Shown here piece by piece: positions 1,042 to 60,768 of a DNA stretch of 64,000 nt. The notes under the pieces are model-generated. The model was not told where the DNA came from. It made no database searches and was given only the letters and a program-made list of their open reading frames with translations. Numbering within the stretch: position 1 is the stretch's first letter; the number at the start of each line of letters is the position of its first letter. The position numbers and the translations under genes were made by a program. Source of the stretch: a virus (Duplodnaviria > Caudoviricetes); the IMG/VR virus record IMGVR_UViG_2974796119_000001, positions 14,834 to 78,833 of that record; one strand, given 5' to 3'.

Positions 1042-1471
1042 TTCAATAACCCTTCCAGTTCAAATAAAAAACGGTAAGTTCAATTCTAATTTAAACACGA
1101 TTATAGATATTATAAAAGCTTACGAAGGGCATACAATAGATATAACTTTTAAAAAGCGTAGCAACAAACGAAGCAACAAACAGAATAAATATTACTGGTC
1201 AGTAATTATCCCCATATTTAATAATTGCATAAAAGTTGAATGGGATGAAATTTGGAGTCTTGAAGAAACACATAATTTTCTTAAAAGCAATTGTAATTAC
1301 GAAGAATTAGTAAATGAAGATACTGGAGAGATAATTAGAAGAACAAAAAGCACAACCGAAAACTCCACAACAGATCAGGAGCTATATCACAAGCAATGTA
1401 GGCGATTAGCTGATGAATTTTTCAACACAGAAATTCCATTACCAAATAAAAAATTAACCCTTAAATTCTAA
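1028..1471 (+). CDS. NinB/Orf-like recombination accessory protein
   Basis: KRSNKQNKYYW resembles the NinB RSxxQNxxxW motif. Confidence 0.6.
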   Translation: MKIASSITLPVQIKNGKFNSNLNTIIDIIKAYEGHTIDITFKKRSNKRSNKQNKYYWSVIIPIFNNCIKVEWDEIWSLEETHNFLKSNCNYEELVNEDTGEIIRRTKSTTENSTTDQELYHKQCRRLADEFFNTEIPLPNKKLTLKF

Positions 1472-2070: not shown

Positions 2071-2838
2071 ATGAACTATATAGAGATTATCAATAACTTT
2101 TGGGCATACACAGAAGATAAAGACATATCCTCAAGTGATACATCTGTTTATTTCGCCTTATTAAAATACAACAATTCACTTAACTGGATAAAAGAATTTA
2201 GATGTGATTATGCAGTGATTTGTCAATACTCAAGAGTGTCTAAAAACACCTTCTACAAATCAATAGATAACCTTTCTGATTTAAAATTAATTCAATACGA
2301 AAAAGGAGTTAGAAACCATCTTAAACCTAAAGTTTCTATTCTTAAAATTAAGAACAGAAAGGGAATAATAAAGGAACAGAAAGGGAACACAGAAGGAACA
2401 CAAGAGGAACAGAAAGGGAACTTATATAAACTACTAAACATAGAAACTATTAAACTATTAAACAATAAAAACTATTCAAAAAAAATTAATGATAATTTAA
2501 AAATTTGGTTAGGACTTGAAGAAGGAGTTTTTAATTTTAGAAAAGAACTTTTAAGTTTAGGCGCTAAAGAAGATTTAGCAAATGACTGGTTAAAAGTTAG
2601 AAAAAATAAAAAAGCTTCAAATACAAAAACAGCTTTTAAACTATTTCACAACCAAGTAATAAAATCAAAAAAAGAAATAAACGAAATTTTGACTATTTGC
2701 ATAGCTAAAGATTGGAAATCGTTTAATGCTAGTTGGAAAATAGAAACACAAAATTCAAACACCAACGATAGAAACTATAATTTCAATAATCAGCCAGGAG
2801 GAATACCAAGCGTTCCCTTTGAAACAAACAGAGATTAA
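2071..2838 (+). CDS. phage replication initiator (lambda O/DnaD-like, N-terminal wHTH)
   Basis: N-terminal HTH-like segment, internal direct repeats, directly upstream of a loader ATPase. Confidence 0.7.
   Translation: MNYIEIINNFWAYTEDKDISSSDTSVYFALLKYNNSLNWIKEFRCDYAVICQYSRVSKNTFYKSIDNLSDLKLIQYEKGVRNHLKPKVSILKIKNRKGIIKEQKGNTEGTQEEQKGNLYKLLNIETIKLLNNKNYSKKINDNLKIWLGLEEGVFNFRKELLSLGAKEDLANDWLKVRKNKKASNTKTAFKLFHNQVIKSKKEINEILTICIAKDWKSFNASWKIETQNSNTNDRNYNFNNQPGGIPSVPFETNRD
2352..2420 (+). repeat. three 14-bp iterons, putative origin of replication inside the initiator gene
   Basis: GAACAGAAAGGGAA at 2352-2365, 2374-2387 and 2407-2420, followed by an AT-rich AAACTA-repeat tract. Confidence 0.65.
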
Positions 2839-33056: not shown

Positions 33057-35326
33057 TGGATAAAAGTTATAGAGACAGAATAGGTAAAAAGATTAATATT
33101 TCTGACATTGTTCCGTTAGACGTTTACAAAACAAAAAATGAAAAAAAATCATGGGAGTATAGAGAATACCCTCAGTACAATATAAACTTTATATGTATTT
33201 CTAAAGATGGTACTTTAGGTGAAATATGGAAAGTAGGTGATTTGTTTATTGGTCTTCCTTCTGTAGAGGGTAAAGAAATTATAAACGCAGGTAAACCCCC
33301 AAAAGAATCAAAATGGGTTAGAGAAAAACCACCAGTAGAGTTTCGTAAATTATGGTTTAAGTACAAGAGCGAAATGGGAGAAACACATCAATCAAAATCA
33401 CCTGAAGTTCGTAAGCGTTTTGTTCAGGAGAGAAATGAATTAATAACTAAAAATATTGATTTTGTAAATGGTGAATTTGACAAAAGAGAATATGGTTTAT
33501 TTATAAAAATTGATGAAGAAGTTCACTACTTCACAGGTGAATATTGGATGTTCTTATCACACTATTACCTTACTGAATCTAATATGTATGGTTTCTTTAG
33601 AACCGTAGCTATGGAAGCATTATGGCATTGGGAAGCTTGTAAAGCAGATACTAGAGTATGGGGAGAAATTAGAGGAAAAGGACGTAGAACAAGTTGGAGT
33701 GTTGAAAGTTCTAGTATGGCCCTAAATGCTTTTACAATTACAAAATTCGCTAAAATACCTATTGTTTCAGAACGTAGTCAATTAGCAAAAGAACTATTTC
33801 AAGGTAAAATTGTAAGCTCATTTGAGTATTATCCTATTTATTTTAAGCCTTTAATTAATTTACCCAATAGTAGTGTTTCTAGTAATTTAACAGTAGAATT
33901 TGAAACAGACGAAGCTGAAAGATCAGTTATAAATCATTATCCAACAAAAACAACAGCATACGATTCAACAAAGGTTAAAAACATATCGATTAATGATGAA
34001 ATTGGTAAATGGGAAAACGAATCTTTAATAGATTTTATATCAAGACACTCAAGATGCCATACGGAAGGAGGTGCTACCGGAAGATTTGGAAGTACTGCCG
34101 GAGAGTATGCAAACGGTGGAGGTGAGGAATTTGAGATTGAATTTATGTCAGCTAACGCAAATGAAAGAAATGCTTTAGGTAGAACAAAAAATGGTTTAGT
34201 ATCATTCTTTATAGATGTTTGCTACACCATGACACAACCAGTAAGTTACTTTGATGAATGGGGTTATTCTATAGTTAACGACCCAATTGAGCCAATAATT
34301 AATGAGCAGGGTAAATTAATATCTATTGGAGCTGTAACAGATTGGCAAATAGTACATGATGATTTAAAGAAAAGTGGTAAAAAGAAAGCTTATAATTCTT
34401 TTTTAAGAGATATGCCAAGAACATTAAACCACATGTTCACTAACGAAGGAGGTACAAATAATGATTTTGATATTAATAATTTAAACGAACATGAAAACTA
34501 CCTTAAAAGTATTCCTAGCATTGAAATTAATGAAAAGATATTTAGAGGTAATTTAATTTTTGCAGGAGAAAAATTTAATTCACCTGTAATATGGAGGCCT
34601 AATGACAATGGTAGAATACAAACAACCTGGCTACCGGAAGAAGCATTACAAAACCAATCATATACTAAAGATTTTTATGGCAAAAAATTAAAGTTCCCAT
34701 CAAATAACCATATTGGCTGTTTTGGAGTAGATAGTTATGATATATCTAAAACAGTTGACGATAATGGTTCAAACGGAGCAGTTGTGGGTTATAGTAAGTT
34801 CAATATGGCGGGCGCACCGTCAAATTCATTTTTTTTAAAATACCTACATAGACCAGATAAACGTGATGATTTTTATGACGATACAATTTGCATGCTTCAA
34901 TACTTCTCAATGTTTGCTTTGGTAGAAAATAACAAGCCAAGACTTTTAGAGTACATGAAAGACTACGGCTATAGAGGTTATTCAATGACTAGACCTGATA
35001 AAAAATGGAAAGATTTATCAGATTTCGAAAAAGAGCATGGAGGAATCCCCGCTTCAGCACAGACAAATAAAGATTGTGCTAGTTTACACAAAGATTACAT
35101 ACTGGATTTTATAGGTCAAAACGTGGAAAAAGAATGTAATTGTTACTTTATAGACATGATTCAAGAATGGAAAAAATTCGATGTAAACAAACGTAAGAAA
35201 TTTGATTTAACCGTTGCAGGAGAATTAGCATTAATGGGCAGTCAATATAAAGTCAAACAAAGAAAGTCTTTAAATATTGGAGTTAATAATCGCACGAGTT
35301 TTTCGTTTAGCGACTTTGGAGCCTAA
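33056..35326 (+). CDS. terL: terminase large subunit
   Basis: Walker A-like KGRRTSWS, Walker B ISINDE, nuclease GVDSYD and FDLTVA. Confidence 0.9.
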   Translation: MDKSYRDRIGKKINISDIVPLDVYKTKNEKKSWEYREYPQYNINFICISKDGTLGEIWKVGDLFIGLPSVEGKEIINAGKPPKESKWVREKPPVEFRKLWFKYKSEMGETHQSKSPEVRKRFVQERNELITKNIDFVNGEFDKREYGLFIKIDEEVHYFTGEYWMFLSHYYLTESNMYGFFRTVAMEALWHWEACKADTRVWGEIRGKGRRTSWSVESSSMALNAFTITKFAKIPIVSERSQLAKELFQGKIVSSFEYYPIYFKPLINLPNSSVSSNLTVEFETDEAERSVINHYPTKTTAYDSTKVKNISINDEIGKWENESLIDFISRHSRCHTEGGATGRFGSTAGEYANGGGEEFEIEFMSANANERNALGRTKNGLVSFFIDVCYTMTQPVSYFDEWGYSIVNDPIEPIINEQGKLISIGAVTDWQIVHDDLKKSGKKKAYNSFLRDMPRTLNHMFTNEGGTNNDFDINNLNEHENYLKSIPSIEINEKIFRGNLIFAGEKFNSPVIWRPNDNGRIQTTWLPEEALQNQSYTKDFYGKKLKFPSNNHIGCFGVDSYDISKTVDDNGSNGAVVGYSKFNMAGAPSNSFFLKYLHRPDKRDDFYDDTICMLQYFSMFALVENNKPRLLEYMKDYGYRGYSMTRPDKKWKDLSDFEKEHGGIPASAQTNKDCASLHKDYILDFIGQNVEKECNCYFIDMIQEWKKFDVNKRKKFDLTVAGELALMGSQYKVKQRKSLNIGVNNRTSFSFSDFGA

Positions 35327-56825: not shown

Positions 56826-57113
56826 ATGAATAACGAATTATTTGATTTTTCACAAGACATGACAAAAGAACAATCTTTAGAACAAAACGTAAAATGCGAC
56901 AAGCAGTTAAGAGTTAATTTAGATGATGAATTACAAAGATTAAAAGGCTTGACTCCATCAAGAGAACGTTCTTTAGCTATTACAAACTTACAACAGTCTA
57001 TTATGTGGTTAGGAATGGATTTAAAACGATTAAATGAAGCAACACCTTATCCTGATAGCTATAAGCCAGAGAACACTAAAATAGCACCAACAGCAGACGA
57101 ACTTAAACTATAA
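56826..57113 (+). CDS. Acb2/Tad1-like helical-hairpin protein (putative signal sponge)
   Basis: PSRERSLAITNLQQSIMWL. Confidence 0.6.
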   Translation: MNNELFDFSQDMTKEQSLEQNVKCDKQLRVNLDDELQRLKGLTPSRERSLAITNLQQSIMWLGMDLKRLNEATPYPDSYKPENTKIAPTADELKL

Positions 57114-57130
57114 ACTAAATATAAATAATT

Positions 57131-57397
57131 ATGGAATTAGTAAATTTTGGAGAAGCGATTAAAGCTCTTAAAGAAGGTAAACGTGTACAACGTCAAGGAT
57201 GGAATGGTAAAGGAATGTATCTTTATTTAGTTAAAGGACAAAGCTTTCCTTCATTAACAGAACACGCTAAAAAAGAGTTTGGAGAAAACACACCTTACAG
57301 ACCTTACATGGCTTTAAAAACAGCCCAAAACGATATAGCAACATGGTCACCAAGTGGTAGCGATGCTTTAGCTGACGACTGGATAGTATTAGATTAA
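57131..57397 (+). CDS. tad2: DUF2829/Tad2 family anti-defence sponge
   Basis: NFGEAIKALKEGKRVQRQGWNGKGMYL...WSPSGSDALADDW. Confidence 0.85.
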   Translation: MELVNFGEAIKALKEGKRVQRQGWNGKGMYLYLVKGQSFPSLTEHAKKEFGENTPYRPYMALKTAQNDIATWSPSGSDALADDWIVLD

Positions 57398-57425
57398 TTA
57401 AATTATTAAATAAAAAACAATAATC

Positions 57426-57965
57426 ATGACGAAAGCAACCAAAAAAACAGAAGTAAAAAAAGTAATTGAACAATCTAAACCAGGTACTCCAATGCCTGCT
57501 TTTGAAAAATTCACTAGAAAAGGTGTTTCAGAAATGAGGCCTTATGTTTTAGGTGAGGACTTAACCGGTGTTTCAGTATCTAAAGAAGATAACCCTGAAA
57601 AAGATATGGGTATGATAGCTAGAAACCCAAAAAATCATAAAGACCAATGGTATGTAGCTAAAGCTTATTTTGATGAAAACCTACAACCTGAAGAAGTAGA
57701 TGCTTCTAAATTAGCAGAAAAATCAGCAACAGAACCTAATTTTTACGATAGATTATTAATCGAAAAAGAACAGTTAGAAGAAAAAACAGTAGGTCTTAAA
57801 ACTTTTATTGACTCAAATCCTGTTTACGGAAAGTTAGATCAAGTTCAAAAAAACTTAATGCTTATACAGCTCAAATCAATGAAGCAATACCTTGACTGCT
57901 TAGACAGAAGAGAAATGATGTTAAGACCTGCAGTAGAAGAAACCCTGCCAACACAAGAGGATTAG
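57426..57965 (+). CDS. two-domain protein: small beta domain plus crAss001_48-like helical hairpin
   Basis: MIARNPKNHKDQWYV; FYDRLLIEKEQLEEK...QLKSMKQYLDCLDRR. Confidence 0.6.
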   Translation: MTKATKKTEVKKVIEQSKPGTPMPAFEKFTRKGVSEMRPYVLGEDLTGVSVSKEDNPEKDMGMIARNPKNHKDQWYVAKAYFDENLQPEEVDASKLAEKSATEPNFYDRLLIEKEQLEEKTVGLKTFIDSNPVYGKLDQVQKNLMLIQLKSMKQYLDCLDRREMMLRPAVEETLPTQED

Positions 57966-57985
57966 GTTTATTCAAAAAGTTTAAC

Positions 57986-58075
57986 TACATTTGATTAAGC
58001 ATACTTTTTTAAAGTCATTCTTTTTCATAGCAATTTTTTTTTATCCTTTCAGTTAATTCTGGAAGGATTTTTTTA
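57986..58075 (+). ncRNA. candidate small RNA (promoter, U-rich body, terminator)
   Basis: TACATTTG (57986-57993); CTTTTTCATAGC; terminator ATCCTTTCAG/CTGGAAGGAT plus T-run. Confidence 0.55.
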
Positions 58076-58091
58076 TTCAATATAATTGTTA

Positions 58092-58099
58092 TATGTTTG
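58092..58099 (+). promoter_or_regulatory. -7 promoter element of tRNA block 1
   Basis: TATGTTTG. Confidence 0.7.
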
Positions 58100-58103
58100 C
58101 CGT

Positions 58104-58166
58104 ATGAAAACAAAATTATATTCATATAGCTGTTTTAGTTCTTGGTTTAAAAACCGAGCAGGATAA
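58104..58166 (+). CDS. attenuator leader peptide 1 (MKTKLYSYSCFSSWFKNRAG)
   Basis: 10 consecutive Tyr/Ser/Cys/Phe/Trp codons; last codons AGCAGGAT complementary to the terminator 5' arm. Confidence 0.8.
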   Translation: MKTKLYSYSCFSSWFKNRAG

Positions 58167-58191
58167 CTATTTGTAATATTTAAACATATAT

Positions 58192-58226
58192 AAAAAGTCC
58201 TGCTATCATAGTAGGACTTTTTTTTA
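58192..58226 (+). terminator. attenuator terminator 1
   Basis: AAAAAGTCCTGCT-ATCAT-AGTAGGACTTTTT plus T-run, directly before tRNA-Tyr. Confidence 0.85.
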
Positions 58227-58227
58227 T

Positions 58228-58296
58228 GGGAGTAATTCTAAGGAGAAACCGAGATTGTAACCCTCCAAATAGTAAGTTCGATTCTTGCTACTCCCA
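58228..58296 (+). tRNA. tRNA-Tyr(GTA), atypical
   Basis: acceptor GGGAGTA/TACTCCC, T-arm GTAAG-TTCGATT-CTTGC, loop TTGTAAC; 4-nt D-loop, weak anticodon stem, short variable loop. Confidence 0.65.
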
Positions 58297-58303
58297 CAAA
58301 AAC

Positions 58304-58371
58304 ACATCTAAGCCTATGGAGGCAAGCGGATTCCAAACTCGTAGAACAGAGTTCGACTCTTTGTAGATGTG
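58304..58371 (+). tRNA. tRNA-Trp(CCA)
   Basis: acceptor ACATCTA/TAGATGT, loop TTCCAAA, G73; 4-nt D-loop. Confidence 0.75.
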
Positions 58372-58376
58372 CTAAT

Positions 58377-58449
58377 GGTTTTATAGCTCAGTTGGTAGAG
58401 CGTCAGGTTGAAGACCTGAGCGTCATTGGTTCGAATCCAATTAAAACCA
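58377..58449 (+). tRNA. tRNA-Phe(GAA)
   Basis: canonical cloverleaf, TCAGG-TTGAAGA-CCTGA. Confidence 0.95.
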
Positions 58450-58453
58450 CTAT

Positions 58454-58543
58454 AGAAGAATAAGCCGAGTTGGTCTATCGGCAGCGCACTTGAAATGCGT
58501 CAATCCTTAAAAGGGTGTGTGAGTTCGAGTCTCACTTCTTCTG
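58454..58543 (+). tRNA. tRNA-Ser(TGA)
   Basis: long variable arm, GCGCA-CTTGAAA-TGCGT, G73. Confidence 0.95.
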
Positions 58544-58548
58544 CAAAA

Positions 58549-58622
58549 GTTTTCGTAGTCAAGCGGTCCAAGACAGATGATTGCAACCCTGAAGGTCACC
58601 AGTTCGAATCTGGTCGAAAACT
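58549..58622 (+). tRNA. tRNA-Cys(GCA) with disrupted anticodon stem
   Basis: acceptor GTTTTCG/CGAAAAC, U73, loop TTGCAAC; GATGA/CCTGA barely pairs. Confidence 0.65.
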
Positions 58623-58626
58623 CTAT

Positions 58627-58709
58627 AGGAAGGTGGCAGAGTGGTAATGCAGCGTCCTGCTAAGACGTAGAACCGAAAGGTTCCCTGAGTTCGAATCTCA
58701 GTCTTCCTG
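58627..58709 (+). tRNA. tRNA-Ser(GCT)
   Basis: long variable arm, GCGTC-CTGCTAA-GACGT, G73. Confidence 0.95.
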
Positions 58710-58741
58710 CAAATTTTATTTTGCTATCTAATAAAAAAGAT

Positions 58742-58749
58742 TATATTTG
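58742..58749 (+). promoter_or_regulatory. -7 promoter element of tRNA block 2
   Basis: TATATTTG. Confidence 0.75.
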
Positions 58750-58753
58750 CAGT

Positions 58754-58825
58754 ATGAAAACAAATAATTTACATATACAACAAAATAACCTACCGGTATT
58801 CCTGGAAGGATTTCTGTATATGTAA
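58754..58825 (+). CDS. attenuator leader peptide 2 (MKTNNLHIQQNNLPVFLEGFLYM)
   Basis: sensor run AAT AAT TTA CAT ATA CAA CAA AAT AAC CTA CCG; TGGAAGGATTT (58803-58813) complementary to the terminator 5' arm. Confidence 0.8.
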   Translation: MKTNNLHIQQNNLPVFLEGFLYM

Positions 58826-58850
58826 GTGAAACAAAATACGCTTGTCATAC

Positions 58851-58883
58851 AAATCCTTCCAATTAATTTTGGAAGGATTTTTT
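58851..58883 (+). terminator. attenuator terminator 2
   Basis: AAATCCTTCCAA-TTAATT-TTGGAAGGATTT plus T-run. Confidence 0.85.
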
Positions 58884-58927
58884 CATTTCTAGTGGTCAAG
58901 TATAATGTTCAATTCATTTAAAACGAC

Positions 58928-58935
58928 TATATTTG
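58928..58935 (+). promoter_or_regulatory. -7 promoter element of the HNH gene
   Basis: TATATTTG. Confidence 0.65.
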
Positions 58936-58958
58936 TATTGAACATTTATAGTTGAATA

Positions 58959-59465
58959 ATGAAACAAGATATTTTAAGATTAAGAAAAGAAGGTAAAACA
59001 TATACAGAGATACAAAATTCTTTAGGTTGCTCTAGGGGAACAATATCATATCACTGTGGTAAAGGTCAGAAAGAGAAAACAAAAGCCAGAACCATTAAAA
59101 ATCGAAGGAATACTAAAAGTAAAATATTAAGAAAAATAGATTTATTTATAAATAGAAATTCTGATAATAAATTATCATACAGAAAGAGGAGTGAGATACA
59201 CGTGAAAATGTTAAATAAAGTTTTAGACAATCCTATCTGTTATTTAACAGGTAAAGAAATAAATTTACATGAATCAGAATCTTATAATTTAGATCACATA
59301 ATACCATTTAGCAAAGGAGGTGAAAATACTTTAAGTAATATGGGCTTAACAAGTAAAGACGCTAATCATTCTAAAAGTTATTTAACATTTAATGAATATA
59401 TTAACTTATGTAAAGATGTTTTAAACAACAATGGATATAAAGTATCGAAACGAGTAATGGACTAA
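58959..59465 (+). CDS. HNH homing endonuclease with N-terminal HTH, inside the tRNA cluster
   Basis: GKTYTEIQNSLGCSRGTISYH; LDHIIPFSKGGENTLSNM...ANHSK. Confidence 0.9.
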   Translation: MKQDILRLRKEGKTYTEIQNSLGCSRGTISYHCGKGQKEKTKARTIKNRRNTKSKILRKIDLFINRNSDNKLSYRKRSEIHVKMLNKVLDNPICYLTGKEINLHESESYNLDHIIPFSKGGENTLSNMGLTSKDANHSKSYLTFNEYINLCKDVLNNNGYKVSKRVMD

Positions 59466-59525
59466 TTGGTAAGTCGCCTACTTTGGATGTAGGACATCAT
59501 GCAGGTTCGAGTCCTGCTTACTCGA
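59451..59525 (+). tRNA. tRNA-Pro(TGG)
   Basis: acceptor CGAGTAA/TTACTCG, CCTAC-TTTGGAT-GTAGG. Confidence 0.9.
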
Positions 59526-59585
59526 CGAAGTAGATTGTTACTAATTCATAGACTGGGCGAAAAATCAGAGCATAGAATTAGACAT

Positions 59586-59657
59586 TGAGATATGGTGTAA
59601 TTGGTAACACACGTGCTTTTGGCGCACGCATTTTAGGTTCGAGTCCTTGTATCTCAA
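59586..59657 (+). tRNA. tRNA-Gln(TTG)
   Basis: T1-A72, CGTGC-TTTTGGC-GCACG. Confidence 0.9.
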
Positions 59658-59663
59658 CAAAAT

Positions 59664-59737
59664 GGTCTTTTAGCTCAGTTGGTTAGAGCAATCCCCTCAT
59701 AAGGGATAGGTCACAGGTTCGAATCCTGTACAGACCA
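59664..59737 (+). tRNA. tRNA with CAT anticodon, probably Ile2 (lysidine, reads ATA)
   Basis: ATCCC-CTCATAA-GGGAT; no initiator features; leader 2 contains ATA. Confidence 0.8.
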
Positions 59738-59746
59738 CATTAAAAA

Positions 59747-59819
59747 GGGTTATTAGCTCAGTCGGTAGAGCAGGACGCTGTTAACGTCAAGGTCATAGGT
59801 TCGAATCCTTTATAACCCG
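59747..59819 (+). tRNA. tRNA-Asn(GTT)
   Basis: GGACG-CTGTTAA-CGTCA, G73. Confidence 0.93.
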
Positions 59820-59825
59820 CTAAAT

Positions 59826-59899
59826 GCTTCGATGATGGAAATGGCTTACATGATCGGCTTAGACCCGATTTTATACGAGTTCGAATCTCGTTCGAAGTA
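59826..59899 (+). tRNA. tRNA-Leu(TAG) with short variable loop
   Basis: ATCGG-CTTAGAC-CCGAT, 5-nt variable loop TTTAT, A73. Confidence 0.75.
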
Positions 59900-59913
59900 C
59901 TAAAGTTTAGAGC

Positions 59914-59945
59914 AAAAAAAAAGAAGCACGAATCACCATGCTTCT
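59914..59945 (-). terminator. intrinsic terminator of the leftward operon
   Basis: minus strand AGAAGCATG-GTGATT-CGTGCTTCT plus T-run. Confidence 0.85.
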
Positions 59946-60008
59946 AAAACAACCTTAAAAATTACGGTATAATGAAAAAAATACACGCTATATAAGGTTA
60001 CAAATATA
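59914..60008 (-). ncRNA. candidate small RNA on the minus strand
   Basis: TATATTTG (60008-60001) about 80 nt upstream of the terminator, with a U-rich body. Confidence 0.45.
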
Positions 60009-60047
60009 TAGATTTATAAGGGTAGCATCAAATAAAGTTACTAACAC

Positions 60048-60284
60048 CTATATAAACTCAGTATTACAAGTATCACATACGTAACAATCCATTTCTGCAG
60101 CATTAACAATAGTTTTATCATGGTACAGGACACCTTCGGGACAATGAGGACACTTATCACTTGTAAATAGATTAAATAGCTTAGGGAGTCTATTTTTAAT
60201 TAAAGAATTAATTTTTACAATAACAACAGAAAGTAATCCGCATCCTGCGAGTAAAACCAATACTAAGTTTAATGTATCATTCAT
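60048..60284 (-). CDS. membrane-anchored zinc-ribbon protein
   Basis: TM helix plus CPHC...CDTC; start set at ATG 60284, just after the upstream stop. Confidence 0.65.
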   Translation of the reverse strand: MNDTLNLVLVLLAGCGLLSVVIVKINSLIKNRLPKLFNLFTSDKCPHCPEGVLYHDKTIVNAAEMDCYVCDTCNTEFI

Positions 60285-60285
60285 A

Positions 60286-60768
60286 TTATTTATGGTATTT
60301 AGATTTGTTATCAAGAATATCTATTGTAGGTTTTTTAATAACAGGAATATTATTCCATCCTGCTATTCTTCGTTTACCAAAGCTATAACCCTGAGCCTCT
60401 TGGTATTCAACCATGGCCTTATTAATATCTTTTCTATTCTGAGGTGTTAAGTAAGGATTGTCAAACGGACCAAATACACCTTGCTTTTCTGAAATTGATG
60501 TTATATCGTTCCATGCTTTTTCTATATCTTTAAATGATATGTCACGTAAAGGTGTTGGAGATTCTGCAACTGCTTTTTCTAATTGAGCAAATAAACCGCC
60601 AGTACATACAAAGCCATCTTTATCTGTTTCTGTATTTTCGTGGCAAGGTGTTTTAAATACAACAGGTGTTTTATTAATTTTAGCTAGTAAAAAAACTTTA
60701 CCAACACATGAAGGTTTACCAATATGCGCTGCTATTCCTATGTGTTTTAATTTTTTATTTATTGCCAT
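60286..60768 (-). CDS. hypothetical protein with major-capsid-like motifs
   Basis: TGGLFAQLE...I...W and FGKRRI versus capsid TQGLFDNLE...I...W and FGKKRI. Confidence 0.6.
   Translation of the reverse strand: MAINKKLKHIGIAAHIGKPSCVGKVFLLAKINKTPVVFKTPCHENTETDKDGFVCTGGLFAQLEKAVAESPTPLRDISFKDIEKAWNDITSISEKQGVFGPFDNPYLTPQNRKDINKAMVEYQEAQGYSFGKRRIAGWNNIPVIKKPTIDILDNKSKYHK

Follow-up and report, generated by a model that had tools for sequence, protein, structure and literature searches.

Why bacteriophages carry tRNA genes has remained unsettled for more than 50 years, according to PMC10264068, and one proposal discussed there is that phage tRNAs counter the depletion of host tRNAs (PMC10264068, citing Yang et al. 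2021, Azam et al. 2023). The locus described here raises a narrower question: what controls such genes, and what does that control sense? The virus record (IMG/VR IMGVR_UViG_2974796119_000001; Duplodnaviria, Caudoviricetes) comprises 78,833 bases with a G+C content of 30.4% and encodes a terminase that shares about 30% identity with terminases from Flavobacterium and Cellulophaga podoviruses. The window analysed is a stretch of 64,000 nucleotides of this record, to which all coordinates of this phage refer. It contains 11 tRNA genes in two blocks (58228–58710 and 59451–59900), each preceded by a short ORF and a terminator. In this study, we examined the second of these leaders, termed attenuator 2, together with its homologs in other phages.

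Organization of the locus

Attenuator 2 (58742–58886) consists of a promoter box, an ORF of 23 codons, hairpins that exclude one another and an intrinsic terminator (Table 1). A first-pass annotation, made from the sequence alone, had described a second, independent attenuator here whose codons match the tRNAs of the following block. Its coordinates for the leader, terminator and antiterminator were all correct on rechecking, and the 11 bp perfect pairing that it reported between the antiterminator arms is indeed an exact complementarity. Independence is the part that calls for qualification: the codon content of the two leaders differs, but 21 of their 23 start bases are shared, and leaders 1 and 2 are best described, from this resemblance, as paralogous modules with different codon content.

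Table 1. Features of attenuator 2 and its surroundings (window coordinates)
Feature	Position	Strand	Remarks
Attenuator 1	58092..58225	+	Box 58092, leader 58104–58166, terminator 58192–58225; design as attenuator 2
tRNA block 1: Tyr, Trp, Phe, Ser(TGA), Cys, Ser(GCT)	58228..58710	+	
SigmaA-type −7 promoter box of Bacteroidota, TATATTTG	58742..58749	+	Activity and start site inferred
Leader ORF 2, 23 codons	58754..58825	+	ATG 58754, stop 58823–58825; translation inferred
Sensor run, codons 4–14	58763..58795	+	Asn (four), Gln (two), Ile(ATA), Leu(CTA) and Pro cognate to block 2
1:2 hairpin (anti-antiterminator) of untranslated leader	58767..58827	+	−20.4 kcal/mol, predicted
Antiterminator 5′ arm (segment 2), within ORF	58803..58813	+	Exact complement of 58851–58861
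Intrinsic terminator, 12 bp stem (58851–58880) and U-run	58851..58886	+	−15.6 kcal/mol; 25–26 nt past stop codon
Second TATATTTG box, probable HNH-gene promoter	58928..58935	+	23 nt before HNH start; activity inferred
HTH and HNH endonuclease gene, 168 aa, probable mobile insertion	58959..59465	+	Pfam HNH_4, E 1.4e-9
tRNA-Pro(TGG)	59451..59526	+	
tRNA-Gln(TTG)	59586..59658	+	
tRNA with CAT anticodon, probably Ile2	59664..59738	+	G1:C72, C4:G69, A73; identity inferred
tRNA-Asn(GTT)	59747..59820	+	In Tyr/Ser/Trp/Phe/Cys block of most relatives
tRNA-Leu(TAG)	59826..59900	+	
Hairpin between block 2 and convergent minus-strand genes	59922..59945		Scored as minus-strand terminator

In Flavobacterium the TAnnTTTG box spans positions −12 to −5 (PMC9723704), so a transcript directed by the box of attenuator 2 is inferred to start on the A of the leader ATG and to be leaderless. 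The 4 nt spacing between box and ATG is the same in homologous leaders, and genes that begin with a box, 4 nt and an ATG are common among the viral pattern matches. The motif TAnnTTTG occurs 102 times in the window versus 113 expected by chance and is therefore no evidence by itself. The short ORF between the promoter box and the regulated genes is conserved in the homologs, where its translation is likewise inferred.

Provided that the CAT tRNA is Ile2, nine of the eleven codons of the sensor run are read by block 2 and none by block 1, while no codon of the leader 1 run is read by block 2; the first-pass count of nine and its claim of exclusive codon sets were thus both reproduced. In a window defined by the folding, 8/10 codons are matched (P = 2e-5 to 7e-5 against phage codon usage, p0 0.17–0.20), and the whole leader ORF, which involves no choice of window, gives 11/22 (P = 4e-4 to 1.4e-3 against the same usage). 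The two remaining codons of the run, Leu(TTA) and His, have no cognate tRNA in the phage and lie inside the 1:2 helix.

Upstream of the tRNA blocks, three consecutive anti-defence sponge-type genes (56826–57965; Acb2/Tad1 hairpin, Tad2-like and PF21825 crAss001_48/Sequestin) follow one another and end at a terminator at 58043–58077. Over 35 nt this terminator shares 89% identity with terminator 2 (58853–58887); it lacks a preceding leader ORF, since the box at 57986 is not followed by an ATG, and is possibly a duplication relic. Two further segments are possibly decayed tRNA genes: 58890–58931, a T-arm-like remnant before the HNH promoter box whose end resembles tRNA-Phe (86% over 21 nt), and 59527–59585, a 59 nt spacer in the slot that holds tRNA-Glu in relatives. 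The genes for tRNA-Tyr and tRNA-Trp (58228–58371) are structurally odd, falling under the Rfam cut-off and being missed by default ARAGORN, and several tRNAs of related phages are likewise divergent, a feature that could matter for nuclease resistance.

Related leaders in other phages

A search for the promoter-plus-start pattern yielded five viral contigs, all of which carry a short leader, a terminator and tRNAs, and six of twelve metagenome pattern matches were further such loci, two of which seem to represent DNA already found among the viral matches. As a control, a looser promoter-plus-start pattern gave no short leader before a tRNA block among 80 matches. Pattern matches L213–L215 and L218 were excluded; they lack tRNAs and look like chance matches inside another gene. 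Four leader-start pattern matches on host chromosomes were rejected as long ORFs rather than leaders, and 151 Bacteroidia genomes contained no leader-start pattern match, which, the pattern being narrow, says little about host tRNA operons. Relatives found through a neighbouring gene carried no tRNAs, and no terminase relatives were found among the viral contigs searched.

The design is present in the cultured phages phi38:1, Calle_1, phi17:2, phi4:1, Panino and phi10:1 and, by homology, in phi40:1; some of the leaders are listed in GenBank as hypothetical proteins. The three leaders of phi38:1 begin at 35283, 36744 and 37987 of KC821614. The usual layout comprises three blocks, each with its own leader and terminator: C (Pro, Glu, Gln, His, two Leu and Arg-ACG), R (Ala, Lys, Ile, Gly, Met, Asp, Thr, Val, Arg-TCT and a second CAT or an Ile-TAT tRNA) and U (Tyr, two Ser, Asn, Trp, Phe and Cys). 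Leader 2 is a homolog of the widespread C type. For the comparative analysis we assembled 25 distinct leader–block pairs from 12 phage lineages, including the cultured phi38:1, phi17:2, Calle, Panino and phi10:1; the block contents were obtained with ARAGORN at relaxed thresholds and by inspection of a few odd tRNAs. None of the conclusions depends on the unpublished genome G096.

Several features of these relatives are recorded here in their own right. A 65 kb viral contig (L221; G129:C1:45000-52000) carries four attenuated, reshuffled tRNA blocks on both strands and two further similar terminators (1361–1388, plus strand; 2282–2311, minus strand) for which no leader was called. Panino and the Ga0222708 phage each have, within block R, an unannotated, degenerate tRNA-Arg(TCT) gene with a long extra arm (L159:6690-6840 and L151:3436-3525). 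At L004:8221-8420 a U-type leader with Ser, Trp, Asn, Tyr and Cys codons precedes a single tRNA (Phe), either a truncated block or an assembly break, and this leader was excluded from the statistics. R-type leaders (L161:6974-7057 of phi17:2, L151:2067, L159:5035 and L160:1592) are not leaderless, one having a GTG start; the R-type blocks contain an initiator-like CAT tRNA, and these leaders may also sense initiation. In viral contigs (L014–L093) the box, 4 nt and ATG often start ordinary genes, which suggests that leaderless mRNAs may be widespread in Bacteroidota phages; they make up 5.5% of host mRNAs (PMC9723704).

Predicted folding of the leader

In silico, the naked RNA adopts the long 1:2 hairpin, whose outer helix is predicted to pair 58767–58779 with 58815–58827, together with the terminator, and the nascent RNA can form the 11 bp antiterminator instead. 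Constrained folding with a ribosome placed at codons up to 12–14 leaves the antiterminator available with P about 1; it is lost from codon 13–15 onwards, depending on the ribosome footprint assumed. In these models the antiterminator would be free only while the ribosome occupies codons 4–14, and the folding switch point coincides with the end of the tRNA-matching run. Leader 1 shows the same folding behaviour. For the full transcript at equilibrium the terminator is favoured (P 0.70–1.0; −15.6 versus −11.1 kcal/mol). Since the terminator is the more stable structure once transcription is complete, switching has to be under kinetic control, as in classical attenuators.

The cognate antiterminator duplex was matched by only one of 2000 shuffles. 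The ribosome step profile is present in 24 of the 25 leaders and the gap between stop codon and terminator is 20–28 nt in 24/25; in the homologous Asn/Phe/Asp leader the antiterminator is weak (5 bp). Pairing between a leader and its own terminator averages −10.7 kcal/mol versus −7.8 kcal/mol for non-cognate combinations and ranks first in 10/25. Cognate pairing is better only on average because many terminators share a core.

Covariation of leader codons with block tRNAs

The covariation of leader codons with block tRNAs across homologous phage loci, which the first-pass annotation had put forward as a check, proved strong. With Ile2 assigned by position and full wobble allowed for four-codon boxes, 281 of the 336 sensor codons in the 25 pairs are read by the leader's own block, and under strict wobble 224/288 are matched. 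At least one cognate codon is present for 170 of 174 block tRNA species, compared with 49 of 426 foreign cells; matching is seen in all 25 pairs, and in every multi-block genome the own block scores best. When blocks differ, the leaders follow: all eight gained tRNA species have codons in the leader, and 17 of 24 lost species have left no codon, two of the seven exceptions being blocks that retain a degenerate Arg-TCT gene. The 25 pairs share ancestry, so that a pooled P value would not be a fair probability, and the covariation is carried by about eight reshuffled pairs in four lineages.

The present phage is among these. Block 2 lacks Glu and Arg tRNAs and run 2 lacks Glu and Arg codons, both of which are found in 5/5 unchanged C leaders; block 2 has gained the Asn and CAT tRNAs, and the four Asn codons and single ATA of run 2 have no counterpart in unchanged C leaders (0/5). 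Reciprocally, block 1 has lost Asn and its run is Asn-free, while Asn codons occur in all eight unchanged U leaders. The same combination of an Asn-free block with an Asn-free run is found in phi10:1, and Asn-containing blocks have Asn codons in 8/8 leaders. In two further genomes (G130 and G129) a block C without Glu follows a leader without Glu codons. The latter genome has four reshuffled blocks with four matching leaders, including Ser/Tyr/Leu and Asn/Phe/Asp sets, and its R block has acquired Trp, Cys and Glu along with their codons.

The match extends to isoacceptors. Arg codons preceding Arg-ACG blocks are CGN in 8/8 cases (14% expected from the usage of this phage) and those preceding Arg-TCT (R) blocks are AGA in 6/6; at the family level isoacceptor matching is real for Arg, Leu, Ile and Ser. 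The first-pass annotation had seen an isoacceptor match in leader 2 itself by way of the supposedly rare codons ATA and CTA. This leader offers only one codon of each, ATA is the commonest Ile codon of the phage (37 per 1000, 48% of Ile codons) and CTA makes up 12% of its Leu codons; rarity is consequently no argument, and it is the family that sustains the claim. The TTA and CAT codons of leader 2 correspond to a nearly invariant Leu-His pair of C leaders whose cognate tRNAs have been lost here; the retention of these codons is explained by the 1:2 helix, where their pairing partner is the end of the ORF.

Proposed mechanism and the signal sensed

From the anatomy, the folding alternatives and the codon–tRNA covariation, attenuator 2 is very likely a ribosome-dependent transcription attenuator that couples phage tRNA synthesis to decoding speed; no expression data are available. 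The attenuator reading of the first-pass annotation is to that extent supported. Host RNA polymerase, on which phi38:1 relies (PMC5335546), would start at the ATG and a ribosome would translate the leaderless ORF, both steps being inferred, and the outcome would be set by the position of the ribosome when 58851–58861 is transcribed. With fast decoding of the Asn, Gln, Ile(ATA), Leu(CUN) and Pro codons, the ribosome would cover 58803–58813, the terminator would form and the tRNA genes would remain silent. When even one of these tRNAs runs short, whether cut, degraded or uncharged, the ribosome would stall within codons 4–14, the 11 bp antiterminator would form first and transcription would proceed into the five tRNA genes, whose products would relieve the stall in a negative feedback loop. 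Without a ribosome, the 1:2 hairpin would hide the antiterminator arm and transcription would stop. Coupling, regulated read-through, the Ile2 identity and tRNA depletion as the selected signal are inferred as well. Several observations count against this reading: two of the 11 run codons (TTA and CAT) have no cognate tRNA in the phage, the promoter box of the HNH gene lies downstream of the terminator, the terminator wins at equilibrium, one homolog has only the weak 5 bp antiterminator, and a near-identical wild strain has exchanged the CAT tRNA while keeping the same leader 2. Leader-peptide attenuation has been reported, as a prediction, for amino-acid operons of Flavobacterium psychrophilum (PMC9723704). 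Six phage non-coding RNAs are reported in the phi38:1 study (PMC5335546).

The least certain step is the signal. Loss of a tRNA and lack of its amino acid would produce the same stall, so the same switch could have been selected as a sensor of amino-acid starvation through uncharged tRNA, a variant that differs in purpose only. Classical attenuators respond to tRNA charging and marine hosts are often starved, and this variant remains a serious, if minority, possibility. Against it, blocks and leaders are sorted by isoacceptor (Arg CGN versus AGA, with both classes of Leu, Ile and Ser covered) rather than by biosynthetic pathway; additional tRNA would, we infer, be no cure for a lack of amino acid, and the locus lies 3′ of three anti-defence sponge genes. 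For these three reasons tRNA loss is favoured over starvation as the selected signal.

Identity of the CAT tRNA

The CAT tRNA is probably Ile2, an identity for which the first-pass annotation had argued from the match to rare codons; it is the tRNA body and the family data, rather than codon rarity, that make it likely, and both lysidine at C34 and isoleucylation are inferred. The 1:72 position is paired, so the tRNA is not an initiator. C4:G69 and A73 are present and the Met anti-determinants U4:A69 and A5:U68 are absent. C4:G69 is a pair used by the TilS enzymes of Escherichia coli and Burkholderia cenocepacia, and C5:G68, the second determinant of E. coli TilS, carries little weight for the B. 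cenocepacia enzyme (PMC2500205, PMC11947777 for both pairs; PMC11947777 for the latter enzyme's 5:68 pair); the phage tRNA has U5:A68 in place of C5:G68. Among phage tRNAs it is closest to the second CAT tRNA of phi17:2, located in the slot where phi38:1 and Calle carry Ile-TAT, and ATA occurs in 5/5 R leaders. Nearest-neighbour typing against host tRNAs leaves the Val, Arg and Ile bodies tied.

It is rather unlikely that the CAT tRNA is instead an elongator Met tRNA, with ATA present for the sake of the 1:2 helix; the attenuator itself would be unaffected. The single ATA of leader 2 does lie inside that helix and the codon is common in the phage, C5:G68 is missing, ATA stands at codon 4 in two leaders whose block has no Ile2, and a near-identical wild strain has swapped the CAT tRNA. 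The Met reading is opposed by the acceptor-stem identities and the phi17:2 relationship given above, and also by the leader, in which the sole inner ATG is codon 23, where a stall would favour termination.

The tRNA-Ile with a TAT anticodon of phi38:1 and Calle_1 (L160:2922-2992 and L158) is absent from the GenBank annotation, and its slot is the CAT tRNA slot of relatives. Such tRNAs are rare in bacteria.

The HNH insertion

The HNH gene lies between terminator 2 and the tRNAs and overlaps the 5′ end of tRNA-Pro. Its box raises the possibility that, with the design real in the family, the attenuator 2 of this isolate is decaying or mostly circumvented, and that block 2 is transcribed from about 58940 by the HNH-borne promoter. 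In G129, one tRNA block contains a related HNH gene (53% over the first 43 residues) that comes with a leaderless box of its own, and the two leader 2 codons without a matching tRNA would fit decay. We regard this as improbable: leader 2, all of its helices and its spacing are intact, its run tracks the current block with four Asn codons and no Glu or Arg codons, and the promoter motif alone is at chance level. Furthermore, in a wild strain of more than 99% identity (runs X5 and X6, two metagenome runs of one study), 58896 is joined to 59503 via 42 other letters, so that the HNH gene and the second box are both absent while leader 2 is the same, which implies that the insertion is recent and optional. 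Block 2 in this isolate may nevertheless have two inputs, which could blunt control. In the wild strain the CAT tRNA (59663–59744) is also replaced by 78 other letters, without any change to leader 2; on this comparison, single tRNA genes are apparently being swapped between close strains.

That terminator 2 is plainly leaky, with the ORF and codon match incidental or serving RNA structure only, is strongly disfavoured: AT-rich sequence does yield many Asn and Ile codons, codons 5–9 are constrained by the 1:2 helix and the terminator resembles the ordinary one that ends the sponge genes, but leader 2 alone is improbable by chance (P 2e-5 to 1.4e-3 overall), the match recurs in all pairs with relocated tRNAs tracked, and the spacing and switch point are conserved.

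Relation to known systems and biological implications

Multivalent leader-peptide attenuators are known from E. coli ilvGMEDA, thr and the pheST leader pheM. Like amino-acid operon attenuators, attenuator 2 has a short ORF, a cluster of control codons that fit the role of the downstream genes, 1:2, 2:3 and 3:4 helices, an intrinsic terminator and a switch set by ribosome position: in silico, the terminator and an ORF-overlapping antiterminator are mutually exclusive, a stall frees the latter and full translation would block it. Unlike in trp, his, ilv, thr or pheST, the downstream genes do not make or activate the sensed amino acid; they are tRNA genes and an HNH gene, so that the product is the sensed decoder itself. 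Further differences are its location on a phage, its leaderless ORF, the sensing of 3–12 tRNA species at the isoacceptor level and the rewriting of leaders when tRNA genes move. For attenuator 1, Rfam returned Phe_leader (E 0.08) and Thr_leader (E 0.27), both below threshold.

T-box riboswitches are alike in that tRNA status governs antitermination, but they work without translation, through direct binding of a single tRNA, and act mostly on synthetase or biosynthesis genes; a T-box identity was rejected, as no Rfam T-box match up to E 1 exists in 57500–60500. Leaderless polycysteine short-ORF attenuators of mycobacteria (bioRxiv 10.1101/834739) similarly gate downstream genes by their codons but respond to one amino acid and serve chromosomal protein-coding operons. 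Counter-defence against tRNA depletion ascribes the same purpose to phage tRNAs, and the accessible portion of PMC10264068 describes no on-demand control of tRNA genes; the attenuator would be its sensor. A literature search, with most subscription papers outside its reach, found no account of attenuated tRNA genes. The mechanism is of a known kind, that of a multivalent attenuator, and the locus extends ribosome-mediated attenuation to tRNA genes.

The locus adds a case in which tRNAs have naturally moved between blocks and the leaders have changed with them. Cultured model phages are available for testing the idea: the design is unannotated in phi38:1, phi40:1 (by homology), phi4:1, phi17:2, Calle, Panino and phi10:1, and for phi38:1 an RNA-seq time course covering one efficient and one inefficient host exists (SRP066570). 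Leaders of this kind also offer a way of assigning ambiguous anticodons such as CAT. With a slight preference only, we interpret the system as a modular tRNA-supply feedback in flavobacterial phages of several families, in which a translated sensor for each block, sampling nearly all isoacceptors of that block, detects host tRNAs removed by a defence nuclease or by infection-driven decay and turns on only the matching replacements. A sensor that responds to slow decoding of a block's own codons speaks for the replacement of depleted tRNAs on demand, and against constant codon compensation. If this is true, the leaders record which tRNAs run short in infected cells, and each would be a ready reporter of that shortage.
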